DNA of 64,000 nt, from positions 188,140 through 252,139 of the forward strand of contig WRAS01000001.1 in the NCBI GenBank assembly GCA_009780065.1, written 5' to 3'. A program made the translations under genes and the position numbers. This DNA is from Bacillota bacterium. Its GTDB lineage: Bacteria; Bacillota; Clostridia; Christensenellales; UBA1242. Shown here in pieces: positions 16,601 through 39,793 of this stretch. Each line of letters opens with the position of its first letter. The first letter of the stretch is position 1. The notes under the pieces are model-generated. The model ran no database searches. It saw only the letters and a program-made list of their open reading frames with translations, and was not told the origin of the DNA.

Positions 16601-19600
16601 GCATTGCCGGTGACAGAAAGATTTTCGCGCTGGCAGGTTACATTCTTCTTTGAATTTCCAAATGGTAACACATATTCACGAAATGTTGGAAACCTTGAAG
16701 AATGGTTGTTTGCAGGTGGTCACGCATCCATAATTCAACCTAACGTCGGCGGTGCAAACCCATTAAACCTTACATCGCATGTACACAGAATTGACGTTAG
16801 ACTGGTTGTACAAGACCTAAATAGCCTTATTGTCCGTGCCTCACACGAGGGTGAACATCACGGTGTAATACGTGACCCGCTACCGGCCCAGATATATGCA
16901 GATGGTGGTTCCGTATTTAATATTACGTCGCTAAGAACTGGTACACCAAGTATGACAATTGAGTTTGGTGTATGTCGCGTACTGGCACAGCAAATTCAAC
17001 GTGCAAGTTCGCAACGTATCGTCGCCTACAGTACCAACGCTGGTGATAACGCAAGATTCCAAGCCAACCAGGCTAACCCAGGGTTCTTGGGACATGTCTT
17101 CCTTCCAGGCCAGCAAATTAACTTGTTCGTAACACCTGTTGCCACTTTCGGTCACTCGCCTTCGTGGATTAGCGGTGGATTTATACCAGGTCAAAGTGTT
17201 GCACAAATTAACGCAGATTCTCCAGGCACATTGATACTGCACCCAATATTTGCTCAGGTCGAATATTCCGTATACATTAACTTTGACGCCGATGCATCAT
17301 TTAACCCATCTGCAATTCCAGGTGGGATGGGTAGTCTTGTAACCGTAAATAACGGGGTAGGACAAATTGCAATACCAGGTTCATTTACACAATTCCAAAA
17401 CTTTGTTCTTAACACACCAAGTTTCGGGGTAGGTCCAGGTATTCAACTGTGGGATGCAATAAGAAATTCAAGAATGGGTCACTACATAGACACTACCACT
17501 CCTCCTGATGCGGTGGTAAACCTAGGTGTAAGAAACCAAGCCAACCAAATTATTCCACGACACAGTCTTAACCACAGCGTGGGAATGTCCTTTACACAAG
17601 GTGCAGGCAGTCTTTCCGCAATCAGCATGAACTATGCCACTGGTGAAAATTTTGATGAGATTCACCTATATGTGCTTTGGCGCGTTCAAACTGTCAACGT
17701 CAGATTTGAAATATGGCGCGACGGCAGTTATCAAACAATCGCAACTGTAAACAGACCATTTGGTGAATCACTAACATTGCACAACGGACAACCGTTCATT
17801 AACGAACGTCGTGGTTTCCAACTTACCGGTTGGAATGTAATGGGACGTGCTGCGCCATTAATCGGCTCTCATTTCGCCCTTAGTGTCAATGTTATGTTGG
17901 ATGGGAATATAAACCCAGGATCCATAGACATTAGCGAGATGCCAATTTCACCAGGTAACCATAGGGTGCGCGAGGTCGTATTCCGTGGCTTCCACCAAGG
18001 TCATCAGGTTAACCAGATTCAGGTTGTATTACACGACTGGGACTTTGGACACACCGAAATTGTATACTTGGATAACTATGATTTGACCAACCCTTTCCGA
18101 CAAAACGTTGGTAACCCGTTCACATTACAGTCATTTACTGGAACTTGGATTGTGGGGGGGGACCCAGTTTGGATAACAAGACAAATACACACACTAAGTT
18201 GGGGACCTGCGCGTTTCGGTGACAGGGTATTCCTAGACTTTGATAGCCAGAACTTCACTCAGTATCTTCTTGATCCACTTACTGGTAACCGAATAATCCC
18301 GAATGAAAGTTCAGGTCGTTTGTTAGAATACTGGTTCTGGCGCGATGGGAATGGCGTTGAACGCCGACTAGAACGTTGTCCAGAGGGCGGTCACTTTATC
18401 CGTTTGGATGATGACAGCATGCTTAACGCACTGGGAACTGCGTTCGCGGTACCTGGTCTATTGCAAATCTTCCCTCGTTTCTCGGATCCATCAACCGGAT
18501 TATTGGACATAACCGGTCTTCGTGGTACATCAAACATTGAAATCGGAACGAATGCGGGGGACCTTCAAAATGTTGAAGACATGGAAGAATTAATCCGTGA
18601 ACACATTATACGATACACTACTGACTTTGCGGCAATTACACCATTGAATGGTATGACTTTGGAATACACAATTGGTTCACCAACCGGAATCAATTTGTAC
18701 CAAGAATTTATCCATAACCCAGGAACGGTAGACAACCGATTCATCCGTTGGGGATGGGAGATGGTGGGTTTCTACGCCTATGTAAACAATGGTGACAGAA
18801 ACGAACCATTAACGCGCGAAGAATTCCGCGTGGGCGATACATTAACTCACACATTCTTGATACCAAACAATGTTACCCGACCTTCACCACTGGTAATTCG
18901 ACCAATTTGGGAACCAATTCCATTCGTCGCGGTTATTGAATCCGGTGTTCCAGGCGGCACATTGCCAGCTGGCGTGACATGGGGTACAAACTTTACTGTC
19001 CGTGGAACTTCTGGGATGGGTGGTGTTTATGACACACTTGATGGATTCTTTGGTTCCACGATTAACCTCCCATTGTTGAATGTTAACGGGAACTTTGATT
19101 TCTGGCACACTGATTTCGTACACCGTGCGACTCCAGCATCTCCAATATTGATTGAAAACGTTGTTTCTTGGGCTAACTTTGAAAACTTCCTCGTTGCATG
19201 GGATCGTGAAACCATAGAAGCCGCGGTTTTTCACCCAAGCGGCAACTTCTCGCGTGACACACTTGCTAGGTCAACTTGGCCACGAATTTACTTCCGCGGT
19301 ATTTGGGATGTAACGGCAAACGTAACCGTTAACCACAATGTCGTAATGCCGAACGCAGCGGGTGTATTGCAAACACATGCGGTTGCATTGAATCCACAAT
19401 ACGACACACAAATTCAAAATGTAATTGCTGCACGTAACCCAAATACATTTATTACATCTACGTTCTCGTTAAGACCGGACGTTGTACGTGTAGAGGTTGG
19501 TACCAACCAATACGTATACCGTTATGTCACCGAGACCGTTCCAACGTTGGGACAACAACTTCCATCTAGTTTCCGTCTGCCAAGTCTCGAACACATGTCA

Positions 19601-22600
19601 ATCGAACTTAGCAACCTTGGGATTGCAGAAAACCTATATGGTATGCAGTCACGCGGATGGTTCCATACTAATCTGGATGCGGCAAACCGCATTGGTAATG
19701 AAAACGATGTGTTATGGTTCAATGGACCGGTACATGGTACCCGTCATACTGCGTTCAGCGCATTTGCACCAGCATGGACTGCACCTAGAAATATCACCGC
19801 GCCTGGTTCTACAACCGCACTTGCAACTGTTAACTTGTTCTATGTATTTGAATTTGTAACAGGGCACATGTATTTCGACCTAAATGGTGGTCTAGTCGGC
19901 GGCAGCCCAAGCGCAGCCCGTGTTGCGGTCACCCAAAATGACCAAGTCAACATGGCAAACGCGAGCCAGTTCCCAATACCAACACGTGAAGGTTACATTT
20001 TCCAAGGTTGGGAATTCGTGGGTGGTCGTCATGTAATCGGTGGCACCATGACACTTGTAACTAACTACGGGCCGGCGGTAAGAAATGGTATCTTGACTGG
20101 TTATACTGGTTATGGCAATAATGGTTCGCCTGCATTTATTGAAAACGCAGGTCGTCGATATGGCGCACATACAGGGAACCTGTTCACCGTAATGTTTGTA
20201 CCGCATCCAGATGACTTTGTCGATGTTGGTATTCGCTCGGTTCACCAAGACGGTATGGCAATACAAATGCGTGCGGTCTGGGTAGACAGATTCGTTCCTG
20301 TGGTCTTCCACGATGCATATGGTAACCCTCTTGGTTCACCTTTCGCAGGTATCCAGGTTCGCGAAGCACACGCAATCGGCAACCCAACCCAAAACACAGA
20401 CTTCTACAATGCTGTATTTGCAAATGATGCACCTGTACCAACACGTATCGGTCACACATTTGCTGGATGGTACCGTGTCAGAACAACCCGTGTTGTCAGT
20501 GCTCAGGTTCTTCCAATATTGACCCAGGCAGACTACAACACATTCCTTGCGGCACATGCAATCAACGCGGGCAGTTTCGTCACACCAGGCGCCCAGGTAT
20601 TCAACCTGTACGCGCGATTTGTTCCGAACTATGTCCAATTCTCGTTCAACCTTGTGGGCGAATCATTACCTGGCAATGCAACAATTCCTAATACGGCCTC
20701 ACTTCGTTATGGTCAAATGCATGCCAACGTGCTGCCAGACCCAACCGTATTTACAATTAACGATGCAGGGTTTGAACTTGTTGGTTGGACAACCGACCCT
20801 AACAACCCACTTGCACCTACATTCGACCCACGTATTACAAGGAACTTGTTCCTTCACGATATCAACAGCGGAAACATGTCTGCTGGTGGTTACTTCTCGA
20901 TGAACGTGGCAACTCCAATGGGAGACTCTAACACACAAAGAACATCGATGGTATCTACAACCGTCTATCCAGGTACATATGTGTTTAATTTAAACCTGTA
21001 CGCAGTATGGCAAGCCAACTACATCACCGTGACATATACCTCTGGTCTAGGTCAAGGTAGCGATGTGATACACACAGGATTCTTGTTCTCTGGAAATATC
21101 CGTAACGCAGTTGGTGGCGAAGGTGCCGCAATCGTGGGACCAGAGCGCGTCGGTTACAGACGTTTCGGTATGATGATTATTGATGATGCTGGTTTCCAAC
21201 GTCCTGGACATAACTTCCTTGGGTGGCGTGCACTTGACCGCCATGAAAACGCATTTACCGAAGGTCCTCTTGCCAACCGTATATTCTTCCCAGGCGAATT
21301 TATCCCAAGTATCCGCGAAAGTATTTACATGGAAGCAATTTGGGTGGCGCAAGGTCCAAATATGACCCAGTTAACAACAATTCCTGCATTACCAGGTGTA
21401 TCCATACTGTCTATGCCAGCACCAGGTGGTGGAATAAATGCCAACTTCTTTTACATGGGCGGGCGTATTAACACACACGCTAATATTGTTCTTATACCAC
21501 GTGGTTTCACAGTAATGCCGCGCGAGTCAATCACATTGACAAACAATAACGTAATTCACGTTGGTCTGCCAACTGCACCTACACGTGCAAATATGTCAGC
21601 AGCAGGGTTACGACTAGAATCCGGTGCGATTGTCGCACACGGTCTGCGAACACTTTACGTAAACGACAGTCTTATTGGTGTAACACGTGATGGTACGAAC
21701 TTTGTCAACTCGCGTGGTAGCCTTGTCTATAACATCGTCATGGCACCGGTTGTGCGTGACCTTAACGGAAGACACTGGGGTCGTGGAATATTCCGCGAAT
21801 ACATCGTAATGCAAGGTAACTTGATTGTGGATGTTGCACCAAACAACACCATCAGCAACCTTCGCTATGTGGGGCGTTCCACAAAATATGCTTACGAGGA
21901 ATCAATTAACAACGTAGGTATGTTGTTCACCCGAACACACAACGAAAACCTACAACAGATTGGTGGTGCGGTGCGTGAACTTGTTGCTGTACCGGGTGCA
22001 TGGGGTAATGGTAACGGTATCAATAACACAACATTGATGAACGTCCAAAGAATCCGAAGTAACGCATTCTTGACATTCACAGGCTGTCACGAAACTGATT
22101 ACGCAACTGATCTTACATTTGACGCACGTTGGTTGAATCTTCAATACGATCGTCATGCATTCTTCCACACTGTATTTGCAAACATGCACTTTGCGGGAAC
22201 AATGCACCACGAGTTTATCAGTGGCTTCAACCCATTCCTTATAGATGTACAGATTGCTACAGATAGTCATGGTATAGGAAACTACGCTGCAAGTAGAATT
22301 ACCGTTGTACCTTATAACACAGTTGTCAGAGGAGGGTGCTGGAATTGCAGTGGGCATAGTAGTAACAATCCACATAACGGTTTATGGGCTATTACAGTTG
22401 CTGGAACTGGAGGAACTCCGCCAAGACCTATCTTAGGTTGGGATCAATCTATTTACAGTCAAAATTGGCAGTATCTTGTGTATATTTTCGGTATGCCTGA
22501 ACCTATTACAGGTGGTGGCGCTGTATGCGAGGTATGCGCTATAGGGAGTTCTCACTTTACTATTTTCACAGGAACAGCAATTGCCACGGGTCCTATGATG

Positions 22601-25006
22601 CACTACGTTATAAACGATTATGCATTTTATAACTTTACACATTTACCTTGGGAAAATGCTGTATTGAATTTTAGGTTTGATGCATGGGGCGCGCTTATAG
22701 GGAATCTTAGATTTGAATACTTTGGTGCGCCAATTTTTGGGACCCGTGGAATCATACATGTTCCAGACGCTTATTGGTCTAGTGCTCAACCCTTCGGCAT
22801 AAATCCGTTGATGACAATACCACCACTTAATATTCAAATTGACTGGCAAGTTTTCAGTGAAGTCACTCTTGATTTTATGTCATTGTTTGGTGTGCGTGAT
22901 TGGGGTAATTGGCTTTTACAACAGTTTACATTTAATAACATGACAACAAGTGTAACTGGACCAGAAAACCGTTTTCCAATATTTGTTAATAATTACTCCT
23001 GGCTCAGATCGACGCATGGACAGCAATTGGTCAACGGAACCAGTCGTTTCCAACCAATATTTACACATGCACAATTCGCAGTAGGTGAGACAACAGATAG
23101 TCAAATGCAACAAGCTGCAACAATTTATTTTGGTGAAACACTAACTTTCCCTAGCATGTGGAATTTCAGCAATGACGTAGGTACTGCACCTTATTATGCA
23201 AAACGTGAAGCAGGCTACACCTTCGTCGGATGGAGACTAAATCTTACACCAGAGCAGTCCAGTTTCATCGCCGGAAGTCCAACGCACCTAATGTTTGCGC
23301 CAGGAGAAACACGTCGACGTGGATTGGAATTCAACGATACAACAATTGCTCTTGATGGTGGAACACGCTTCTTTGCGGTGTGGCGAAAGGTTCTTGTTCA
23401 ATTTGATGGACGATTATCGGATGACGACCAAGACAGATTTGCTGCAGAACTATTCACCGATATAGAGGTTTACATTGTTGAACGCGATGGCCTAAACAAC
23501 CCATACCGTGGTGACCGTGTTGGTCTGTGGGATATTCGTCTGTCTACACCAGGCACAGAGATTTTCATGCCTGGTCACACGCACACCTTCATAGAGGGTG
23601 TAAGCAACAGGCGAATGACTTTCACCGGTTGGATTTCGTACAGCGATCTTGGTGATAACTTGGGGTACTGGAACTACAATAATAATTTTGCGGGTCGAAT
23701 TCTACCGGATGGGTTTGCTATATTCGAATTGGGAACTACGGTCACACGATTCCATGCACTATACGATTATTCCAACGTGGAAATTGCAAATCAAAGTGGT
23801 ACATTCACCGTAACTGGATTTACTACGGCTGCAAACTACAATGTAACTAACTACGTGTCTGTTCCACATGCAGTCTACCACCAGGGTTTCATGCATCCGG
23901 TCACGCACATTGCACCACGCGCATTCTTTCACGAAACTGGTATTACACAAAGCATCCGTCTAAGTGACAGCATCCGTGTAATAGGCAACCAAGCATTCGA
24001 ACGCACAAATGCAGGGGAGGTAGCAGTCGGCTGGCTGGATGGTACATCTTGTCATGGACTACATTTCAGTGGTTTCCCTCATCTTGTTGAAGTTGGTGAG
24101 ACACTTGTAATTGGTACAAATGCATTTGCATACAACTATAACCTTGGGGGGGCTGCTCAAACAAGAACGGAATACCTTAATGTGTCTTTGAACCTTCCAT
24201 GGTATACAACATCTATCGGTCATGGTGCATTCCGTGAAACACGTATTCATCGCGTATGTTTTGGTGGATTTGGTGGAAATATATCTAGCCTTCAATATAT
24301 TCATGACAGTGCATTCGAGGGCGCGCGTGGACTTTCCCATATTGGTACATTCCCATCTACACTAAGACACGTTGGTGAACACGCATTTACGCACACACAA
24401 ATTGGTGGACCAGGCAATCCTGGCTTCACCACCCAAAACGTACCGGCATCGTTCCAATTCCACGACCAAAGCAACATACTGTTTGTGGGTCAGATATCCG
24501 GTTCACCGAATGGACGTGCGTATGTTGCGGTGAATGGTCACCTTACGCGCGTATCACAATTGGATGGATTAATTACATTGGTTGTATATGCAACTGGTAA
24601 TATTAACCCAACATTTGACCTTGAATCCCTTGTGGTCGGGCAATTCGTGGTATCCGACATTGGTCACAACGCATTCGCACACCACAGACACTTACAAAAT
24701 ATTATTTTGCCAGAGAGCATTATGGGAAGACAAGTTCGTGTAGGCGACAGCGCATTCGCATTCATGCGTGCACCAAATATCAATATTTTTGTGGGTCACA
24801 GTTCAAGTGCATTCTTTAACTCGCCACCTGTAAGCACCAATGCCTTCCGTAATGCGCCGTTGACAGCCACAATCCGCCTTGTGAATATCACAGGTGCGGC
24901 AGGCAGTCGCGTATTCACGAACGGTAGCCAAAGTCTCGCAGAATGGCAGACCAGTTTCCCAACGCCAACAATTAGAATTCTGTTCACAACAAATTGGCAA
25001 GGATAA
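13691..25006 (+). CDS. giant (3771 aa) membrane-anchored surface protein with Listeria-Bacteroides-type repeats and C-terminal BspA-type leucine-rich repeats
   Basis: Single uninterrupted ORF. N-terminal anchor VVAGGLVAVLLLLGIAMFAMF. At least 12 degenerate repeat signatures: GYEFTGWRIEGG, GYIFQGWEFVGG, GHTFAGWYRV, GFELVGWTTD, GHNFLGWRAL, GYTFVGWRLN, each closed by LYARF, LYAVWQ or FFAVWRK. The C-terminal LRR units are IGNQAFERT, IGTNAFAYN, IGHGAFRET, IHDSAFEGA, VGEHAFTHT, IGHNAFAHH and VGDSAFAFM. Confidence 0.9.
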   Translation: MDRRTKKRVVAGGLVAVLLLLGIAMFAMFGQTFTVYFDPGTGGVLQYEGRRMESIEVSPRNPRRIAGYVPVHQDGKIFEGWRLSATATTNIYDTANINESRTLVAYWRNAEFAARLHVNGVHVRTVPFFSGDAFATLNTQTNDWIIPNTDYFTFHGWSFYDSRGNEMELRRIPTGQPNAGEWNIRQVGTINPPQLINDDNPFRPQTFGNIFHAILTYNPVGLHFHTSPNLATRITMDIDGQFGDTAFVAAPGFTNQSQIDNFVGWRLARHTELEGFSPNGGHLPIPARHLHQFDTLTNSFTTIERFNNAPANTLAQDAQIQMARLNEIFNRTYKPGEAFEIDPLLFYISTRGFSINHTLGIHFLPVFGSDLVPDAGNNDQLFFLRDDRIPGMERLVQVTTTSGDDIPAFLQGGQISFTDVGIVGGRMLAGFSFTNEGIIHTIPTHANLPVNDSRLTQNGSNLFTMIWQDAPGQNVVVNFDFGTEHGSNLIFIGQGAGFISSQDVISQLGTIIARPGDFVIMPSTSMFGVPGMTFGHWQAEDGTIIGGAGAPFQVNSGTYQITAVWINNQSMFAFNLNGGRPGPDFNPDPGQMTITVNQAGQQLAQIPTGRPIRYGYEFTGWRIEGGVSTLLQPGANILVTARRQILVAQWTPMAVSVHLEFSFVNVGLGQVATPANVQRATLTLNVPFDSFIQLPRISRIGDALSNLGAPLAVRNLANAYTDAVQHVGWHFADNRVGSNSPITILPEERIHINEAFAIRNTGSTSDTVLATSGVRATDLKAGLQRDVQIIDSVGSQVTGLDAFRLETQTWEGGFWDVMGNTPVLNTQNDRRITRTDMLARLDARTGITYNRYRQHMMTHTLAGFIYLPTTQVGALGLTTATGWLNAFNPATGTYDGATTAPFVHRFNAQGVVYLPAPMEHMTLFLLWQRNAIEIRVLDNTHNLMSTVQSYHNDNRDHAQLDGTFFQSFVNALPVTERFSRWQVTFFFEFPNGNTYSRNVGNLEEWLFAGGHASIIQPNVGGANPLNLTSHVHRIDVRLVVQDLNSLIVRASHEGEHHGVIRDPLPAQIYADGGSVFNITSLRTGTPSMTIEFGVCRVLAQQIQRASSQRIVAYSTNAGDNARFQANQANPGFLGHVFLPGQQINLFVTPVATFGHSPSWISGGFIPGQSVAQINADSPGTLILHPIFAQVEYSVYINFDADASFNPSAIPGGMGSLVTVNNGVGQIAIPGSFTQFQNFVLNTPSFGVGPGIQLWDAIRNSRMGHYIDTTTPPDAVVNLGVRNQANQIIPRHSLNHSVGMSFTQGAGSLSAISMNYATGENFDEIHLYVLWRVQTVNVRFEIWRDGSYQTIATVNRPFGESLTLHNGQPFINERRGFQLTGWNVMGRAAPLIGSHFALSVNVMLDGNINPGSIDISEMPISPGNHRVREVVFRGFHQGHQVNQIQVVLHDWDFGHTEIVYLDNYDLTNPFRQNVGNPFTLQSFTGTWIVGGDPVWITRQIHTLSWGPARFGDRVFLDFDSQNFTQYLLDPLTGNRIIPNESSGRLLEYWFWRDGNGVERRLERCPEGGHFIRLDDDSMLNALGTAFAVPGLLQIFPRFSDPSTGLLDITGLRGTSNIEIGTNAGDLQNVEDMEELIREHIIRYTTDFAAITPLNGMTLEYTIGSPTGINLYQEFIHNPGTVDNRFIRWGWEMVGFYAYVNNGDRNEPLTREEFRVGDTLTHTFLIPNNVTRPSPLVIRPIWEPIPFVAVIESGVPGGTLPAGVTWGTNFTVRGTSGMGGVYDTLDGFFGSTINLPLLNVNGNFDFWHTDFVHRATPASPILIENVVSWANFENFLVAWDRETIEAAVFHPSGNFSRDTLARSTWPRIYFRGIWDVTANVTVNHNVVMPNAAGVLQTHAVALNPQYDTQIQNVIAARNPNTFITSTFSLRPDVVRVEVGTNQYVYRYVTETVPTLGQQLPSSFRLPSLEHMSIELSNLGIAENLYGMQSRGWFHTNLDAANRIGNENDVLWFNGPVHGTRHTAFSAFAPAWTAPRNITAPGSTTALATVNLFYVFEFVTGHMYFDLNGGLVGGSPSAARVAVTQNDQVNMANASQFPIPTREGYIFQGWEFVGGRHVIGGTMTLVTNYGPAVRNGILTGYTGYGNNGSPAFIENAGRRYGAHTGNLFTVMFVPHPDDFVDVGIRSVHQDGMAIQMRAVWVDRFVPVVFHDAYGNPLGSPFAGIQVREAHAIGNPTQNTDFYNAVFANDAPVPTRIGHTFAGWYRVRTTRVVSAQVLPILTQADYNTFLAAHAINAGSFVTPGAQVFNLYARFVPNYVQFSFNLVGESLPGNATIPNTASLRYGQMHANVLPDPTVFTINDAGFELVGWTTDPNNPLAPTFDPRITRNLFLHDINSGNMSAGGYFSMNVATPMGDSNTQRTSMVSTTVYPGTYVFNLNLYAVWQANYITVTYTSGLGQGSDVIHTGFLFSGNIRNAVGGEGAAIVGPERVGYRRFGMMIIDDAGFQRPGHNFLGWRALDRHENAFTEGPLANRIFFPGEFIPSIRESIYMEAIWVAQGPNMTQLTTIPALPGVSILSMPAPGGGINANFFYMGGRINTHANIVLIPRGFTVMPRESITLTNNNVIHVGLPTAPTRANMSAAGLRLESGAIVAHGLRTLYVNDSLIGVTRDGTNFVNSRGSLVYNIVMAPVVRDLNGRHWGRGIFREYIVMQGNLIVDVAPNNTISNLRYVGRSTKYAYEESINNVGMLFTRTHNENLQQIGGAVRELVAVPGAWGNGNGINNTTLMNVQRIRSNAFLTFTGCHETDYATDLTFDARWLNLQYDRHAFFHTVFANMHFAGTMHHEFISGFNPFLIDVQIATDSHGIGNYAASRITVVPYNTVVRGGCWNCSGHSSNNPHNGLWAITVAGTGGTPPRPILGWDQSIYSQNWQYLVYIFGMPEPITGGGAVCEVCAIGSSHFTIFTGTAIATGPMMHYVINDYAFYNFTHLPWENAVLNFRFDAWGALIGNLRFEYFGAPIFGTRGIIHVPDAYWSSAQPFGINPLMTIPPLNIQIDWQVFSEVTLDFMSLFGVRDWGNWLLQQFTFNNMTTSVTGPENRFPIFVNNYSWLRSTHGQQLVNGTSRFQPIFTHAQFAVGETTDSQMQQAATIYFGETLTFPSMWNFSNDVGTAPYYAKREAGYTFVGWRLNLTPEQSSFIAGSPTHLMFAPGETRRRGLEFNDTTIALDGGTRFFAVWRKVLVQFDGRLSDDDQDRFAAELFTDIEVYIVERDGLNNPYRGDRVGLWDIRLSTPGTEIFMPGHTHTFIEGVSNRRMTFTGWISYSDLGDNLGYWNYNNNFAGRILPDGFAIFELGTTVTRFHALYDYSNVEIANQSGTFTVTGFTTAANYNVTNYVSVPHAVYHQGFMHPVTHIAPRAFFHETGITQSIRLSDSIRVIGNQAFERTNAGEVAVGWLDGTSCHGLHFSGFPHLVEVGETLVIGTNAFAYNYNLGGAAQTRTEYLNVSLNLPWYTTSIGHGAFRETRIHRVCFGGFGGNISSLQYIHDSAFEGARGLSHIGTFPSTLRHVGEHAFTHTQIGGPGNPGFTTQNVPASFQFHDQSNILFVGQISGSPNGRAYVAVNGHLTRVSQLDGLITLVVYATGNINPTFDLESLVVGQFVVSDIGHNAFAHHRHLQNIILPESIMGRQVRVGDSAFAFMRAPNINIFVGHSSSAFFNSPPVSTNAFRNAPLTATIRLVNITGAAGSRVFTNGSQSLAEWQTSFPTPTIRILFTTNWQG
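18154..18161 (+). repeat. G8 homopolymer inside the giant gene
   Basis: tgtGGGGGGGGaccc, coding IVGGDP. Confidence 0.95.
24146..24152 (+). repeat. G7 homopolymer inside the giant gene
   Basis: accttGGGGGGGctg, coding NLGGAA. Confidence 0.95.
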
Positions 25007-34314: not shown

Positions 34315-36156
34315 ATGGGATTGTTTTCCAGAAAAAAGAAAGAAGAAAAAAAAGTTGAGCAACCAACAAACACGCCAAAACAAATAGAGCCCGTAGCACA
34401 AGAGCCGGTGATTTCGCCGACACCAGAAAAAAAACAGCCAACCAAAAAAGTGACACCAGTAAAAGAGGCAAAAGTTGGAACAAAAAAAACTGATACAAAG
34501 CATGCTGCGAAACCAACCTCAAAAGTAAAACCAGTTCAAAAAACCACCCCAAAGAAAGAAACAAAAAAGCCAGAACCCAAGGTTGAAACAAAACCTGTGG
34601 TAAAAATTGTTGCAAGGGTAAAGGTCGAAGAATCTCAATTACCTGTTGCTAAAAAACCGGAAACAAAAGTTAAAAAGAAAGTTGCAACGAAACCTGCTAC
34701 CAAGGCAAAACCATCAACCGCAAAAAAACCGATAGCAAAGATAGCAGAGAAAAAGGCCCCAGTAAAACAATCTGTCAAAAAGGTGGAAGTCAAAAAAACA
34801 GAGAAGATAACAGAGAAAAAAGTTACAGAAAAACCAATGCCAAAAGCACCGATTAAACAAGTTGAAAAGAAAGCCCCAGTCAGAAAGGTACCCGCAAAGA
34901 AAGAGGTCTCAACTAAAAGGGTCGAAGTCCAAAAAACCGAAGATAAGGTACAAACGGCAATTGCAGAAAAGCCTGTTGAAATTGCAACGCCAAAACCAGA
35001 AAAAACAAAAAAGCAAACACCAGTCAAAGAAGAAGTGAAGCCAGTTATAGAGGAAACAAAAAAGAACGAAGCAAAAGATGGCGAGGTCGAATTTTCCAAA
35101 CCAGAAATTGAATATTTGTTACACCGCTTTATTGAGACGGGTACCAAATATGGTTTCGTTAATGAAGACAATATGTACATGAACTTTGTCGAGGCAGGTG
35201 CCAGTGCCGATGATGTAGATCTTGCAATCGAAGAAATAAAACGCCAGGGCATCTTTGTAAAAAAATCAAGCGAACTGGAACCTGGTAAAGGCGAAGACGT
35301 AGAAAAGATAATAGCCGCCAGCAGCGTGGACGACAGTGTCAAAAGTTACCTCCGTGAAATTGGGCGTCATCCATTGTTAACGGTGGAAGAAGAATCCGAG
35401 GTCGCCAAGCGAATGGCAGAGGGTTGTGAGGAGGCAAAAGTACGCCTTAACCAAGCCAACCTGCGTTTGGTTGTGCACATTGCAAAGCGTTATACAAACC
35501 GAACCAGTTTACAATTCCAAGACCTTATCCAAGAGGGCAACATCGGGCTTATGCGTGCGGTGGAAAAATTTGACTACCGAAAGGGTTTTCGATTTTCAAC
35601 ATACGCAACATGGTGGATTCGACAATCTATAACACGTGCAATGGCAGACCAAAGCCGTCTTATCCGAATTCCGGTACACATGGTGGAAACGATAAACAGA
35701 TTGTTAAAAGCCACAAGATTATTGCAACAAGAAATGGGTCGCGAACCCACCACCCAGGAACTGTCAAACCACCTTGGAATGACCCCTGAAAAAATCGAAG
35801 AAATTCGCCGTATCAGCCAAGACACAACCAGTATCGATTCGCCCCTCGGCGAAGACGGGGACGGTGTAATTGGTGACACAATTGCGGATACCCAAATCGA
35901 AGACCCAGCCAGCCGTGCCCAAGGTCTAATGTTAAAGGAACAATTGCTTGCGGTTATAAATGGACTCACCCCACGTGAACAAAAGGTTATTCGTTTGCGT
36001 TATGGAATCGACGACGGCAAACCACGGACACTGGAAGAGGTCGGTAAAGAATTCCGCGTCACCCGTGAACGTATCCGTCAGATCGAGGCAAAGGCACTAA
36101 GAAAACTGCGAAACCCTATGCGTATGCGAAGATTAAAAGATTTTATAGAGGAATAA
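34315..36156 (+). CDS. rpoD: primary RNA polymerase sigma factor (sigma-70/SigA) with a Lys-rich N-terminal extension of about 270 aa
   Basis: [49 protein letters not shown] and [20 protein letters not shown]. The N-terminus is K/P/E/T/V low complexity. Confidence 0.95.
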
Positions 36157-36173
36157 AAACTATCCAAAAATAC

Positions 36174-36200
36174 TTGACTTAATATATATATATATATACT
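36174..36200 (+). promoter_or_regulatory. candidate promoter whose spacer is a TA dinucleotide repeat
   Basis: TTGACT (36174-36179), a 15-nt spacer made almost entirely of TA repeats, then TATACT (36195-36200). Confidence 0.45.
36182..36198. repeat. (TA)8 microsatellite
   Basis: 17-nt perfect alternating run, atatatatatatatata. Confidence 0.95.
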
Positions 36201-36234
36201 TTCCCTAAATTCTAATTTTAGGAGGGAAAGATAG

Positions 36235-36660
36235 ATGACATTCAAAGAGATCCAAAAAGAACTTAAAAATGGTATATATTCTGGATATGAAATTCAAATA
36301 GCAAAGGAGGTAATAGATTTAATTAGTGGCAAAGCTGTTTTTGAGGGCAGCAGGTATTCAACATTATGTAAATTAAATTTAACCGAGAACACAAAAGACC
36401 AAGCAATCGCAGTGTCAATTGCCGAGAAATTAAAATTACTTCCGATGAAACTCAGACTAATGTTTGATAGTCATTTTGAACAAGAAGCAGATAATATGCA
36501 ATATTTTATTGCAAAGGAATCATCCAAAGATGCAATCGAGACTGGAAACCAAGCGGATATTGAAAATGTACAGATACAACACAGACGTCTTGCAGACTTT
36601 GAACTGGCAAACGAATCTGTTAGAAAGAAAAGAGAACCATCGCAAGATGTTGAAAAATAA
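36235..36660 (+). CDS. hypothetical protein, 141 aa
   Basis: ORF track. AGGAGGG lies 8 nt upstream. I recognise no motif. Confidence 0.55.
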   Translation: MTFKEIQKELKNGIYSGYEIQIAKEVIDLISGKAVFEGSRYSTLCKLNLTENTKDQAIAVSIAEKLKLLPMKLRLMFDSHFEQEADNMQYFIAKESSKDAIETGNQADIENVQIQHRRLADFELANESVRKKREPSQDVEK

Positions 36661-36672
36661 TAAACAAAAGAG

Positions 36673-36703
36673 TCACTTACATCGTAAAGGAAGTGATTTT
36701 TTT
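36673..36703 (+). terminator. rho-independent terminator
   Basis: TCACTT (36673-36678) pairs with AAGTGA (36691-36696), followed by T7. Confidence 0.55.
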
Positions 36704-36761
36704 GTACATCAATTTTCCCAGCAATATTGACTTTGTGGGGTGTTTTTATATATAATTATAA

Positions 36762-39031
36762 ATGGAATTAGCCAAAAAGCGTGCCATTTCAGATGTCCAA
36801 AATTCAAAAGGAAAGTTGAATAATGTCATACTGGCTGCGCTGGTTTCTGATTTGCAACGCGGGCCATACGAACCATTGGCAGTAGGGGTTTTGGCAGGCG
36901 CGTTATTGGAAGAAATCCCAGATATAAATGTTTACATTAGCACAGTAAGGCAGAGTGACATTCAAAATTTTGTTAAAATGTGTTCACTGTTGGATCCAAC
37001 TACAATTGGTTTATCAATCCCACAAGGAACCGCAGATATCGCAAAATCAATATTAGACAAAATTCATGGAAAAACAAACGCAGCCATCGTTGTTGGTCAC
37101 GCGATCCCAACCAGAGGTAACGATCTTGCACAAGAATATCCAGACATAACGCCAATAAAAGGTTGGGGCGAAAACCAACTGGTAAATATTGTTCAAAAAA
37201 GACTTGGGCGCGAACCAATAGAGGACAAAGGTAAATCATATGTCCCTGTAAGAGTTGGCGAACCAAATGAATACATAAGACGAATCGAAGCAAGCCGTGG
37301 ATGCAATTACGGTAGGTGCTTTTTTTGTACGCGCCCGGATGATACTCATTCACCAAAATGGAAACCCGTGGACTTGGACGTCATTCGTAAACAACTGGAT
37401 GAATTAACCGAAATGGGCGTAACATCATTTGCTTTTACTGACGAGGATTTTGCTGGCAACCCAAAACAAATCCCGGAATTGACGAACTTGCTTGGGCAAT
37501 ATAACTTTAAATTTTCGTCTGCAATGTGTGTGGAAACAATTATTCCAATAATCCAGGACAAAGACAAATCCGTGCCGACCAAATAAAAGATTTGGCAAAT
37601 GTTGGTTTAAGTCAGGTATTCATGGGTGTCGAATCGTTCGTTGAAACACAACAAAAGCGATACAACAAACATCTTCATGGTGGCAGGCAATCATGTACAG
37701 ATGCAATAAATCTTCTGACCCAATCAGGTGTTGATATTGAAATGGGATTAATTGTATTTGACCCAAAATCTACAAAAGCTGAACTTGCCGAAACTGCTAA
37801 TATTTTGCTGGGGGGGGGTGACCTATATAAAGCCCTTGACCATCCATTCAGTAAACTTAAACTTGGTGAGGGATCGTTGCTCGCACAAAAATATGATTTG
37901 GGCAAAGAAAAATTGTCATATAATACACTAAACTATGACTGGGAATTTGAAGACGCCGAAGTTGGGGAGATATACAAAAAATGTAACGATTGGTTCAGAC
38001 CACTTCACCCGTCATATTCTTTGGCGCGCTCTTTGATTCGTTCATTGCCTGATGATGAAAATGTCCGTGAACAACTTGCGTCACAAATGTCAAAAATAAG
38101 ACAACAATTTGTACTTTTGTTGCAATCATCAATTGAAAAAGATGATAACGAATTTAAAAGTTATTCAGAATCTGCAAAACAGGTTGTAATAAATGCACTG
38201 AAACTAATTGGTAATATTGCACGTACCAGTGGACTGTTTGATACACAAAAAACACATATTCAATTGGAGCAAAGTCTTAAAAACTTAAGAACAGAACCAG
38301 AAAAGAAAAAGAAACCAATCTCCATGACAGATTTTGGATTTTCGGTTGAAGGTTGGGAAACAAAACAACAAAAACTACAAGAAAACAATCTACCACACCA
38401 AAATAAACTCTGTGGTGATTTAAATGATTTTGTTGCAAACCCAACCTCGATATTGGATGCGCTTAAACGCGAAGACTATTACAAAGGCAAGTTTTATCTG
38501 AAAATCATCAAAGCAAGCGGCAGCAACAAGAAGATAGTCGGCGATCAAAATGATGTGATAAACTTTGCAATACAAAATTTTGAACCCGGTGACCAGTATG
38601 AAATAATGGCGGCACTTGAAAGCCAAATTGGTGCAATCGCAATAAAAAAGGATGATGTATATCTGGAATTTGGTGAAACAGATGCCAGCTACTTTGGCCT
38701 AGACAAAGTAAAACACAGTTCGCCAGATGCAACTATCCACCTTAGTAATCCCAGTGATGCCAATCTTCTGCAAAATGCAACCACTTTCAGTGAATCAGAC
38801 ATGGTAATGTTCACAGAGTTAATTACCCAGTATCTGCCAACCAAGCAGGGAATAAGATACAAATCAGACGAAGACAATGGAATCGAGCACTATGCAATCC
38901 CGCACTATTACGAAGCAATGCTTTACCAAAATAATAATGAAGAATGGCAAGTATTATTTAGCGACATGTCCAAAGATCAACATTATGCCGGTGTCAATTA
39001 CGAGGCACATCGCCAAAACGACAGGGCATAA
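36762..39031 (+). pseudogene. B12-binding-domain-like radical SAM protein split into two overlapping ORFs by a frame change (36762-37586 and 37526-39031)
   Basis: ORF1 has a Rossmann-like N-domain, then RIEASRGCNYGRCFFCTRP, then FAFTDEDF. ORF2 is offset by -1 and continues the rSAM barrel with IKDLANVGLSQVFMGVESF and VDIEMGLIVFDPKST. It then has about 300 aa with no motif I recognise. Confidence 0.7.
37810..37818 (+). repeat. G9 homopolymer inside the radical SAM gene
   Basis: gctGGGGGGGGGtgac, coding LGGGD. Confidence 0.95.
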
Positions 39032-39088
39032 ACACTTTTGTTGCAGTTGTTAAAAGGTTGTGCTAAACTGTGTGATTGAGAGGTAAAA

Positions 39089-39793
39089 ATGATAAAAGCA
39101 TTACTGGATTATCAGGAAAAGGAAAAAGAAAAACTGAACATAATCGCAACCGTCGAAGGTGGCAAGGTCAAACGTGAATTGGACGAGGCAATGCGTATTT
39201 TTGAAAATGCAAAAAACGCGTCTCTTGCATTGGATGAGGAATCCAAGCAACTCGTGTCCACTGTGGAAACTTTGAAAAAGGAAAATGCTACTGCAGTCAA
39301 ATCAATGGAAGCCCTTGTAAAGGGCGCAAACAATGCAACAGACGAAGAAAAAATCAACGAACAAATTTCCGAGGTTTCAAAATTATTTAACAAGGTTGCG
39401 GGGATGGAAACCCAACTTGGCGATATTATTCGAAAGATAAACGACAAAAATGCAAAGTTCGAAATCGAGGTTGCAAATTTGAAAAAAAGCCAAGGCGCAA
39501 TCAAAACATTACAGGAACAATATGCAAAACAAAAAGAAAAAACCGACGAAATGATAAAGCCAATTGATGCCGCATTGAAAAAATTGGAACCATCTGTGGA
39601 TGCGAAACTGTTGGAAAAATATAAAAAAGCCAGGTTGTCCAGTCGCGCGCGTGCGGGCGACGTTGTTATCCGTTTGGTTGGGAATAACTGTGGTGCATGT
39701 CATTTCGAAATACCATTGTCCATGATTCACAAAATCACAACAGACGGATATATTTCGTGCGAGGAATGTGGAAAAATAATTTACAAAGCTTAA
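39089..39793 (+). CDS. coiled-coil protein with C-terminal C4 zinc ribbon (COG1579/DUF164 type)
   Basis: A long coiled coil is followed by NNCGACHFEIP...ISCEECGKIIY. Confidence 0.75.
   Translation: MIKALLDYQEKEKEKLNIIATVEGGKVKRELDEAMRIFENAKNASLALDEESKQLVSTVETLKKENATAVKSMEALVKGANNATDEEKINEQISEVSKLFNKVAGMETQLGDIIRKINDKNAKFEIEVANLKKSQGAIKTLQEQYAKQKEKTDEMIKPIDAALKKLEPSVDAKLLEKYKKARLSSRARAGDVVIRLVGNNCGACHFEIPLSMIHKITTDGYISCEECGKIIYKA

Follow-up and report, generated by a model that had tools for sequence, protein, structure and literature searches.

The window, by which we mean the whole 64-kb stretch of DNA analysed, carries two overlapping open reading frames that both resemble parts of a radical SAM (rSAM) enzyme. 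This raises the question of whether the two frames are the pieces of a single gene and, if so, how that gene came to be broken and what its intact product would have done. The two frames are the following:

36762-37586, plus strand: ORF1, 274 aa, NCBI MCL2569752.1, 'radical SAM protein'
37526-39031, plus strand: ORF2, 501 aa, in the -1 frame, NCBI MCL2569753.1, hypothetical FWE16_00925

ORF1 encodes a cobalamin (Cbl)-binding domain, the Fe-S cluster loop and the GGE motif, followed by five out-of-frame codons and a stop. ORF2 overlaps it by 61 nt, begins with a GTG 'start' that has no SD sequence, and encodes the remainder of the rSAM barrel, a helical bundle and a partner domain. Against the Pfam Radical_SAM profile (PF04055), ORF1 alone scores 28.8 bits and ORF2 alone 14.8 bits, both below the cut-off of 29.5, whereas joining them raises the score to 45.6 bits, with profile positions 2-164 of 166 covered. 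Because the joined sequence passes this profile and the halves do not, the barrel must continue across the frame break. In addition, one base added near 37566-37569 produces an alignment that runs without gaps through the junction, both with the intact homologue P0002 and with the rSAM protein of locus L007. ORF1 and ORF2 are therefore pieces of one radical SAM gene. A preliminary description of this DNA had already proposed a single gene split by a 1-nt offset, with a barrel spanning the break, and was right on both points; its length of about 775 aa for the joined protein has to be corrected to 756 aa. We consider it likely that the locus represents one 756-aa fusion of an OxsB-like rSAM enzyme with a partner protein, inactivated by a 1-nt deletion, the intact form of which would have served in nucleotide remodelling. 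The locus had also been called AT-rich, which is true only marginally (39.1% GC against 41.1% for the window), and a reading of the rSAM gene as a compositional island is unsupported; only the 141-aa gene upstream, at 33.6%, is clearly lower.

Once repaired, the protein divides into the following parts, the domain identities of which are established:

36819-37256, plus strand: cobalamin-binding Rossmann-type domain (residues ~20-165)
37269-37801, plus strand: radical SAM partial TIM barrel (repaired residues 170-347), interrupted by the frameshift
37302-37328, plus strand: CX4CX2C [4Fe-4S] cluster motif RGCNYGRCFFC (C181-x4-C186-x2-C189)
37808-38260, plus strand: C-terminal helical bundle (repaired residues ~350-500, ~150 aa), from alignment and profile
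38321-39031, plus strand: fused partner domain of an orphan family (repaired residues ~521-756, ~250-260 aa)

The closest solved structure is by far that of OxsB. The family profile matches OxsB in the PDB with an E value of 2.3e-64 (221 bits), the next PDB match standing at 3.5e-13, and OxsB is the sole PDB match of the window protein alone (E 4.5e-14). Foldseek, run on the AF2 model, places 5ul3, 5ul4 and 5ul2 at the top (E 6e-23, TM 0.48-0.50), with CysS behind at 4.5e-12; these entries (PDB 5UL2/5UL3/5UL4) are structures of the Bacillus megaterium enzyme. On these profile and model comparisons, the family is clearly OxsB-like. The N-terminal domain had been described as B12-binding, and this assignment is confirmed: family profile positions 58-170 align to residues 153-267 of OxsB, within its Cbl domain, Pfam PF02310 is precomputed on five homologues, and the AF2 model shows a beta-alpha Rossmann pattern at pLDDT 84-94. 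Foldseek returns a local match to the corrinoid protein 1y80 as well, and the downstream Cbl motif reads G83-x-S85-x-P87 (37008-37022). An N-terminal Rossmann-type Cbl-binding domain with a Gly-x-Ser-x-(variable) motif places the protein in class B, and cobalamin binding is predicted from sequence and model.

The catalytic motifs follow the same pattern. The CX4CX2C spacing is kept in 10/10 homologues as well as in L007 and L038; it had been noted as a departure from the canonical motif, which it is, yet it is no novelty, as OxsB, the cobalamin-dependent rSAM enzyme of oxetanocin-A biosynthesis, has the same motif (PMC9204698). R191, two residues past the cluster motif, is the equivalent of Arg323 of OxsB. 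The SAM motifs comprise T226-D227-E228 (the GGE motif, 37437-37445), E291 (ribose, 37631-37633), K303 and I331; of these residues, T226-D227-E228, E291 and I331, together with the cluster cysteines C181, C186 and C189, align with OxsB residues named in PMC9204698. Beyond the barrel, the C-terminal half had been regarded as wholly unrecognisable, and this view has to be revised: its first ~150 aa form an OxsB-type helical bundle, and the rest is a separate orphan domain. The bundle is common to all family members, profile positions 383-521 corresponding to OxsB residues 533-678 (OxsB domain IV), and the AF2 model shows long helices at residues 399-489 with pLDDT 75-89.

What broke the gene can be approached through three features near or beyond the junction:

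37527-37529, plus strand: Cys256 codon TGT, a position that is Arg in 10/10 homologues, in the L007 rSAM and in OxsB (Arg399)
37566-37569, plus strand: likeliest site of a 1-nt deletion (gac aaa^tcc; homology bounds 37551-37570)
37810-37818, plus strand: G9 tract, read as Gly-Gly-Gly (GGG codons) in frame with ORF2

Restoring one A at the deletion site gives ...PIIQDKDK-IRADQIKDL..., equal in length to P0002 and L007 at this point. The frameshift is established, and a 1-nt deletion here would leave the GGE motif on one side of the cut barrel and the ribose, Lys and GxIxGxxE SAM-binding motifs on the other. Judged by comparison with the homologues, R256C, 13 codons before the break, probably adds a second damaging lesion. 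The present gene would most likely give rise to no active enzyme, and it appears most likely to be a recently inactivated accessory gene. Decay is favoured because three assemblies agree, no slippery site is present and R256C constitutes a second lesion. Where the choice between decay, assembly error and switch had been declared undecidable, the sequence data narrow it towards decay.

One alternative is a sequencing or assembly error, in which the organism's gene would be intact and the missing base a consensus artefact. The NCBI MAG, an ENA MEGAHIT contig (ERZ27257297) and a JGI metagenome contig (3300010369) share one identical sequence, so that three different pipelines arrived at the same base string. 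However, the three assemblies are 100% identical over 13-17 kb and therefore probably stem from one sample or population, not from independent read sets; they may share reads, and a systematic read error may then lie behind the deletion. An error would also suit a lesion of one base in a short A run, in a gene that has a near-consensus promoter and keeps every family-invariant residue but Arg256. Indeed, R256C apart, the window protein deviates from family-conserved columns at 10/80 positions and the intact P0002 at 11/78; since this deviation is no greater than that of an intact homologue, decay, if real, must be very recent. Against an error, the 'k141_' contig names point to a MEGAHIT short-read assembly, in which one-base indels seldom arise at an A3 run. 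Moreover, no other gene is split in the densely packed 64-kb window, where even a 3771-aa ORF with G8 and G7 tracts is intact. On balance, an error appears distinctly unlikely, and decay remains the preferred reading.

A functional product could still be made if the break were bridged by a programmed -1 ribosomal frameshift, or if the enzyme were deliberately split into two chains. The -1 offset, the 61-nt overlap and an ORF2 that is otherwise fully open and well conserved are in keeping with such a design. However, no X XXY YYZ slippery heptamer occurs within 37511-37586, the downstream RNA is as stable as shuffled sequence (z = 0.0), and no run is long enough for transcriptional slippage. 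The GTG of ORF2 is not preceded by an SD, and the break lies inside the barrel, between SAM-binding motifs. A single frame is found in 10/10 homologues and in the rSAM genes of L007 and of the 11 strong GTDB loci (L009-L019), which answers the earlier question of whether orthologs are intact. Bridging or splitting is barely credible.

The G9 tract suggested a further explanation, that of a phase-variable gene switched by changes in tract length. Long G tracts slip readily, this one lies inside the coding sequence, and the loop that it encodes is one residue longer than in every homologue. However, the tract is in frame with the conserved sequence downstream, and the stretch from the break to the tract reads correctly in the ORF2 frame. 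As the tract lies ~245 nt after the break, a change in its length could not restore the ORF1-ORF2 frame. Nor does the number of runs of G8 or longer clearly exceed chance (three found against 1.1 expected, with 16/100 shuffles reaching three), and a G9 switch is very improbable. The tract that had been pointed out is thus real, but its tie to the frame break is not, and a recently decayed gene remains the reading that we retain.

The region upstream of the gene contains two features:

36235-36660, plus strand: 141-aa gene MCL2569751.1, the upstream neighbour (33.6% GC, with an SD)
36727-36756, plus strand: sigma-70-type promoter TTGACT-N18-TATAAT, 11/12 consensus matches

The promoter is the best site in 36100-39200. 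Its TATAAT box ends 5 nt before the ATG of ORF1, which has no SD upstream, and this spacing implies a leaderless or near-leaderless mRNA, as predicted from sequence. A leaderless-type promoter before the start codon had been described correctly; it is nothing special to the rSAM gene, since several other genes in the window share the same layout. The 141-aa gene had been put forward as a possible constant companion of the rSAM gene. No homologue of its product occurs in any of the related loci, the plasmid protein search and PADLOC returned no match for it, and it is rejected as a companion of the rSAM system; it is a neighbour only.

A different protein qualifies as a companion, namely the domain to which the enzyme is fused. 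This domain is homologous to three stand-alone proteins, P0014 (263 aa), P0012 (275 aa) and P0013 (247 aa), the latter two being collinear with it in the alignment. The genes for P0012 and P0013 lie directly upstream of rSAM genes and overlap their starts by 14 nt and 4 nt, respectively, and the rSAM proteins so encoded are the two closest relatives of the window rSAM (42-43% identical). Because the partner is separate, adjacent and overlapping in these two closest relatives, the window gene can be read as a fusion of enzyme and partner, and the fusion itself is established. It amounts to Rosetta-stone evidence that ties an orphan protein family to an rSAM enzyme; on the strength of gene order and fusion, the rSAM and partner proteins are held to work together, and they are probably in physical contact. 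A defined pair, such as P0002 and P0012, is now available to enzymologists.

P0014, the closest homologue of the partner domain, is encoded between fhs and leuS with no adjacent rSAM gene, an observation that counts against the partner link. It was also the only protein recovered by an exhaustive HMMER search of 1.84 billion representatives (E 8e-22, 35% identity), and the partner family has four known members only. Two metagenome scans, one based on the partner alignment and the other on the sub-clade rSAM alignment, found no relatives, and a word-indexed search with the partner domain was empty. Profile searches of Pfam (E up to 10) and the PDB with this domain gave noise only (AvrM_N, DUF2205 and an ETS domain at E 0.37). 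The 422-aa tandem-repeat protein P0015, in which five repeated stretches matched, was set aside as repeat-driven, and no profile supports a PPDK_N/ATP-grasp-like reading of the 'G.I....D..Y.E' stretch of the partner. Structure prediction of the C-terminal ~300 aa, which had been recommended, succeeded for the helical bundle (pLDDT 75-89). It gave no fold for the partner domain, for which AF2 on the 4-sequence alignment reached an unusable mean pLDDT of 37 and the full-length model stayed below 50.

The substrate, product and biological role of the intact enzyme can be approached by analogy with characterised enzymes and through the neighbourhoods of its relatives. The cassette of L007 has CBASS and a gene of the PLD family next to it, P0011 belongs to a Tn7-like cargo that also carries WYL, N6_Mtase and pPIWI_RE genes, and P0004 adjoins Cas2/Cas4 and is accompanied by a dCMP deaminase and a nucleotidyltransferase. 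A copy in Herpetosiphon is flanked by a NACHT-EAD7 protein and a resolvase, and of the relatives on IMG/VR contigs one is next to an MccF-type S66 peptidase and another is close to a capsid gene. Neighbouring genes in the family also include AAA_33, APH and PRK kinases, an inositol monophosphatase (IMPase), a pyrophosphatase (PPase), a second deaminase and an ABC exporter. Within this nucleotide and defence theme, the association with defence islands is anecdotal. The wider family is scattered among Actinomycetes, Chloroflexi, CPR (candidate phyla radiation) bacteria, archaea and phages, and over mobile elements and surroundings that resemble defence islands. In PADLOC-DB 2.0, the only similarity is one of 20.5 bits to PDC-M51A over the cluster loop, which is not a real match, and four homologues and the partner protein are without a match there; a search of phage DNA found no match, and plasmid protein searches found distant rSAMs only. 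In the literature, no paper was found that links phage defence with OxsB or oxetanocin; the one joint mention was a citation only.

From the analogy with OxsB and AlsB and from these neighbourhoods, we infer that a small molecule resembling a nucleotide is probably what the intact enzyme remodels. The reduced cluster would cleave SAM to yield a 5'-deoxyadenosyl radical, which would abstract a hydrogen from the nucleotide-like substrate, and cobalamin would assist the rearrangement. The partner domain could act in the role of OxsA or AlsA, capturing or processing a labile product, and the pathway would end in a modified nucleoside or nucleotide that serves in antagonism or in defence against phages.

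We regard it as somewhat unlikely that the intact enzyme is instead an ordinary class B rSAM methyltransferase, or a Cbl-dependent rSAM whose substrate is not a nucleotide but, for example, a glycan, lipid or peptide. Characterised Cbl-dependent rSAMs are mostly methylases (PMC13331322), and the family has Pro87 on the lower face of cobalamin where OxsB has Asn186, a position that a review describes as a hotspot for tuning the chemistry. Weak NCBIfam similarities to PhpK, ArsL, CUAEP and MJ_0865 point in the same direction. The CPR clade, located beside GT4, sulfatase-like, HAD and CysD/CysNC genes, appears to lie within an envelope or sulfation cluster, which would suit a non-nucleotide substrate. 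However, the match to OxsB is stronger by ~50 orders of magnitude than the match to any methylase, with the same ranking in Foldseek, the OxsB-specific CX4CX2C motif and Arg323-Glu363 pair are conserved, and no NCBIfam model comes near its cut-off. Against a non-nucleotide substrate, neighbouring genes are rich in nucleotide-type kinases, phosphatases and deaminases. Nucleotide remodelling therefore remains the reading that we prefer.

A more specific proposal is that the rSAM enzyme and its orphan partner, adjacent and translationally coupled in two relatives and fused here, form an unrecognised two-component system that makes a toxic or chain-terminating nucleoside analogue from a cellular nucleotide. 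We regard this proposal as speculative and rather unlikely. If true, the system would parallel the viperin type of chemical defence against phages, but with a dependence on cobalamin, and would be a source of new antivirals resembling oxetanocin, and the wider family would be a reservoir of related chemistries, each set by its own partner enzyme. Should the products be nucleoside analogues, the family would bear on both antiviral natural products and bacterial chemical defence. The window copy itself is probably dead, and its value would be that of a pointer to the family, not of a working system.

Several known systems invite comparison. The likeness to prokaryotic viperins (pVips), rSAM enzymes that produce antiviral nucleotide analogues, is conceptual only: the window family likewise consists of rSAMs that occur sporadically in defence-island-like surroundings and may turn a nucleotide into something toxic. 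pVips have no specific sequence relationship to the window family, lack a Cbl domain and carry CX3CX2C. The best NCBIfam similarities are to ArsL (NF040542, RCCLKC-tail rSAM), the CUAEP-tail rSAM (NF040546) and PhpK (TIGR04479), at 26-76 bits over the Cbl/rSAM core. The curated cut-offs (450-600 bits) are 6- to 20-fold higher, the window protein has neither an RCCLKC nor a CUAEP tail, and its family belongs to none of these three. TokK, CysS and TsrM, which are structurally characterised Cbl-dependent rSAMs, share the general class B architecture and the SAM-binding motifs; outside the Cbl-dependent enzymes, the AprD4-type diol dehydratase comes nearest. All are much more distant than OxsB (profile E values against the PDB of 3.7e-10 for CysS, 8.9e-06 for TokK and 0.0023 for AprD4; Foldseek 1e-11 to 1e-12 for the group), carry CX3CX2C and perform methyl transfer or dehydration. 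The lower-face residue is Trp in TokK and Arg in TsrM, in contrast to Pro in the window family.

OxsB remains the principal point of reference, together with AlsB (AlbB), its homologue of albucidin biosynthesis. To our knowledge, these are the only characterised ring-contracting cobalamin-dependent rSAMs, and no natural oxetane nucleosides are known beyond the two that they make; oxetanocin is an antiviral nucleoside. OxsB has the same domain order as the window protein, from Cbl Rossmann domain through rSAM barrel to C-terminal helical bundle. Its R323/E363 pair, formed by the Arg past the cluster motif and the GGE Glu, corresponds to R191/E228, and its ribose Glu (E436), SAM-carboxylate Lys (K448) and GxIxGxxE Ile (I474) are identical to E291, K303 and I331, as are Gly182 and Ser184 of its downstream Cbl motif (G182-x-S184-x-N186) to their counterparts here.

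The differences are equally clear. Identity over the core is just 17-18% in the Foldseek alignment, and domain I, the N-terminal domain of the four-domain OxsB architecture, is absent from the window family, whose proteins start about 20-40 residues ahead of the Cbl domain; since OxsB residue 153 is matched by profile position 58, the N-terminal ~95 residues of OxsB are left without an equivalent. Asn186 of OxsB, which holds the water that serves as lower axial Co ligand, is replaced by Pro87 (GxSxP), invariant in 11/11 family sequences, and His325-Lys326 of OxsB is not conserved, so that the chemistry may differ from ring contraction. OxsB requires the physical presence of OxsA, and AlsB that of AlsA (PMC13331322). 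These partners are an HD phosphohydrolase (OxsA) and a biotin-synthase-like rSAM (AlsA), neither type of which occurs among the scanned neighbours of any family member. The need for a second protein is matched in the window family by an orphan domain of ~250 aa, adjacent or fused to the enzyme, and the window copy is fused and frameshifted. The locus points to an uncharacterised sister family of OxsB, which lacks domain I, places a Pro under the cobalt and has different partners.

The two overlapping open reading frames of this locus, which NCBI annotates as separate entries, overlap by 61 nt and are laid out as follows:

36762-37586, + strand, ORF1, 274 aa, NCBI MCL2569752.1 (ORF list and raw sequence)
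37526-39031, + strand, ORF2, 501 aa, -1 frame relative to ORF1, NCBI MCL2569753.1 (ORF list and raw sequence)

Scored against the Pfam Radical_SAM profile (166 positions, threshold 29.5 bits), each half falls below threshold, ORF1 with 28.8 bits over profile positions 2-68 and ORF2 with 14.8 bits over 91-164, while the joined sequence reaches 45.6 bits over 2-164. Judged by sequence, the two ORFs are pieces of one radical SAM (rSAM) domain, and the barrel runs on across the frame break, as the preliminary description had proposed. Through the break region, the closest intact homologue, P0002, reads ...AMRVETVVPYDDNLKIQRKEDIQRLASSGLKLVFLGVESF and the intact rSAM of locus L007 reads ...ALRVETIIPNDSKLKAKRICDIKKLVDSGLKLAFIGVESL; in the window, frame 0 gives ...AMCVETIIPIIQDKDK and frame -1 gives IRADQIKDLANVGLSQVFMGVESF. 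One base inserted within 37551-37570 gives exactly the length found in the homologues and an alignment without any gap, which makes the lesion a 1-nt deletion. The simplest repair is an extra A in gac-aaa^tcc (37566-37569), and the reconstructed protein has 756 aa, not the 775 or so first estimated. The GGE motif lies on the ORF1 side of the break and the ribose, Lys and GxIxGxxE motifs on the ORF2 side, so that formation of the SAM site by either fragment alone is predicted to be impossible.

An assembler artefact could produce such a break. However, the DNA of the locus is identical base for base in the ENA MEGAHIT contig k141_2648740 (253 kb) and the JGI metagenome contig Ga0136643_10000252 (57 kb), both of which show the same two gene calls as NCBI. 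No other split gene is found in the 64-kb window either; an assembler artefact is therefore unlikely. The three assemblies are identical over 13-17 kb and probably share one sample, so a systematic error in the reads is possible, though improbable. Programmed frameshifting was rejected: the ORF1/ORF2 overlap holds no X XXY YYZ slippery heptamer, the RNA downstream of the break folds no better than shuffled sequences (z = 0.0), no Shine-Dalgarno (SD) sequence precedes the GTG of ORF2, and all rSAM homologues, checked for intactness, are single-frame. The G9 tract noticed earlier is present (37810-37818), but it is a bystander: it is in frame about 245 nt 3' of the break and cannot repair it. 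Runs of such length are not clearly more frequent than expected by chance. The only other long G runs in the window, G8 at 18154-18161 and G7 at 24146-24152, lie in a single intact, unbroken ORF of 3771 aa (13691-25006).

Apart from the deletion, the gene is well kept. At columns conserved in at least 9 of 10 homologues (n = 80), the window protein deviates at 10/80, compared with 11/78 for the intact P0002. One further change is conspicuous: Cys256 (TGT, 37527-37529), 13 codons before the frameshift, replaces an arginine that 10/10 homologues share with the L007 enzyme and OxsB (Arg399), the cobalamin (Cbl)-dependent rSAM enzyme of oxetanocin-A biosynthesis. On sequence grounds, this close pair of lesions in an otherwise well-kept gene suggests recent inactivation, and the window copy most likely represents an accessory gene that died only recently.

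The rSAM gene is preceded by this promoter:

36727-36756, TTGACT-N18-TATAAT, 11/12 consensus matches, ending 5 nt before the ATG

As the preliminary description stated, the ATG lacks an SD. SD-less starts with a TATAAT-like box a few bases upstream recur at several other window genes, including dnaG; with the rSAM gene counted in, this layout is seen at the genes starting at 1871, 6617, 12694, 32551, 36762, 45892 and 59138. The leaderless layout thus looks like a habit of the genome, not a peculiarity of the rSAM gene, and leaderless transcripts may be frequent in this Bacillota MAG. The locus, described as AT-rich, is only slightly so (39.1% GC, against 41.1% for the window); the upstream 141-aa gene is lower, at 33.6%. 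That gene has no Pfam match and no homologue in any related locus or plasmids, and is a bystander and not the conserved companion that had been envisaged. Further upstream, RpoD (34315-36156) carries a Lys/Pro/Glu/Val-rich low-complexity N-terminal extension of ~270 residues before its conserved sigma-70 regions. Downstream, an ATP-dependent DNA ligase (39816-41114, DNA_ligase_A_M + OB_2, 432 aa) lies between a zinc-ribbon/coiled-coil gene (39089-39793) and rpoZ (41180-41386). Beyond it, tandem paralogous genes of 159 and 160 aa (41479-41958 and 42473-42955), separated by a very AT-rich stretch (27-30% GC), encode signal-peptide-like N-termini and, after these, ~55 residues that are nearly the same in both; a 974-aa Peptidase_M64 gene (42965-45889) follows closely.

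Searching 5.8 billion proteins gave, besides ORF2 itself, 10 homologues of 508-563 aa, P0002 with 43% identity and the others with ~25-31%. All 10 carry R-[IV]-E-A-S-R-G-C-x4-C-x2-C. No NCBIfam model came near its cut-off, the best (ArsL, CUAEP-tail, PhpK) giving 26-76 bits against 450-600. The family profile matches OxsB (5UL2/3/4) with E 2.3e-64, the next structure following at 3.5e-13; profile 58-383 corresponds to OxsB 153-498 and a helical bundle, 383-521, to OxsB 533-678. Searched alone against structures, the window protein matches only OxsB (E 4.5e-14). For the repaired protein, AF2 gives a confident model of residues 20-460 (pLDDT mostly 70-92), and Foldseek places the three OxsB entries on top (E 6e-23, TM 0.48-0.50), with CysS and AprD4 behind.

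The C-terminal half had been considered unrecognisable. This no longer applies to residues ~350-500, which alignment, profile and AF2 model identify as the helical bundle common to the whole family and OxsB. The homologues end after this bundle, while the window protein runs on for ~260 residues. This tail has no relative in Pfam or PDB, and fold prediction gave no usable model. HMMER, run exhaustively over 1.84 billion representatives, returned only the tail itself, P0014 (263 aa, 35% identity, E 8e-22) and one repeat protein. The latter, P0015 (422 aa), consists of about six near-identical 70-residue repeats, five stretches of which matched (E 2.5e-10); the match looks repeat-driven and was rejected. 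The tail also matches P0012 (275 aa; pairwise E 5e-5), whose gene lies directly upstream of that of P0002 and overlaps its start by 14 nt. In locus L007, P0013 (247 aa), which is homologous to P0012, reaches 4 nt into the start of the 494-aa rSAM. The four-way alignment is collinear (hhalign E 1.9e-4), with LP, F..N, INF, G, D..Y.E, L....H, YYE and F.D shared. Since the tail is homologous to separate proteins encoded beside the rSAM in relatives, the window gene is an enzyme fused to a partner that is separate and translationally coupled in the two closest relatives. The rSAM-partner link is strong but not universal: P0014 is a stand-alone gene (L008 1517-2308) flanked by fhs and leuS, with no rSAM gene on its 2.8-kb contig, and the partner family may also exist independently. 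The partner-domain HMM matched none of the other fetched loci.

Among GTDB species representatives, 11 loci give strong full-length matches (L009-L019, E 1e-58 to 7e-35), in Nonomuraea (two), Actinomadura, a Thermoplasmatales archaeon, Chloroflexia (two), Herpetosiphon, Polyangiaceae, Anaerolineales, Woesebacteria and Microgenomates; 16 further loci give weaker, partial ones. Neighbourhoods vary. The L007 cassette adjoins a CBASS pair (SMODS + SAVED) and a PLD-family gene; a Tn7-like element carries the homologue P0011 as cargo, along with WYL, N6_Mtase and pPIWI_RE genes; P0004 follows Cas2/Cas4 and precedes a dCMP deaminase and a nucleotidyltransferase; and the Herpetosiphon copy lies between a NACHT-EAD7 protein and a resolvase. 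Elsewhere, the neighbouring genes encode AAA_33 or APH kinases, inositol monophosphatase, pyrophosphatase, a second deaminase or an ABC exporter. Three IMG/VR contigs likewise carry relatives. In L037 (9-2098), genes for an S66 LD-carboxypeptidase (MccF-type) and a YpsA SLOG protein come after the rSAM gene; MccF-type S66 peptidases are immunity enzymes against peptidyl-nucleotide antibiotics. In L039 (1567-2520 and 6001-7200), a few kb separate the rSAM gene and an HK97-type capsid gene. One CPR cluster (HAD, GT4, PRK/uridine-kinase family, sulfatase-like, rSAM) is kept across Woesebacteria, Microgenomates and two metagenome contigs:

L003 4128-12462; L004; L017 2044-7566; L019 1913-7356, CPR rSAM cluster

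In L003 and L004, CysD-like, CysN/APS-kinase (CysN/C) and TauE genes follow the rSAM, which points to a possible connection with adenine-nucleotide (APS/PAPS) or sulfation chemistry.

OxsB and its albucidin homologue AlsB contract the sugar ring of dATP or dAMP in two rounds of 5'-dA radical chemistry assisted by cobalamin, and need OxsA and AlsA, respectively, in the case of OxsB as a physically present partner (PMC13331322, PMC7074753). By analogy, the intact window enzyme would most likely have acted on a nucleotide-like small molecule by Cbl-assisted radical chemistry, its product most likely being handled by the fused partner domain and possibly serving antagonism or phage defence. PADLOC holds no model for the rSAM-partner family, and no literature link between OxsB or oxetanocin and phage defence was found. 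The value of the family lies mainly in a defined enzyme-partner pair for biochemistry.

The comparison with OxsB extends to individual residues (OxsB numbering as in PMC9204698). The cluster motif RGC-NYGR-C-FF-C (37302-37328) is indeed CX4CX2C, but it is no departure, since OxsB has the same spacing (C313/C318/C321, PMC9204698; window C181/C186/C189). Also equivalent are Arg323 (R191), the GGE motif A361-D362-E363 (T226-D227-E228), the ribose-motif Glu436 (E291), Lys448 (K303) and Ile474 (I331). The proposed N-terminal B12 domain holds, its profile aligning to OxsB and its downstream Cbl motif G83-x-S85-x-P87 corresponding to OxsB G182-x-S184-x-N186; under the cobalt, however, this family has an invariant Pro where OxsB has Asn. 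OxsB His325-Lys326 is not kept, and the N-terminal domain I of OxsB is absent. The family revealed here is thus of the OxsB type, but it lacks domain I, carries GxSxP and has a novel partner.
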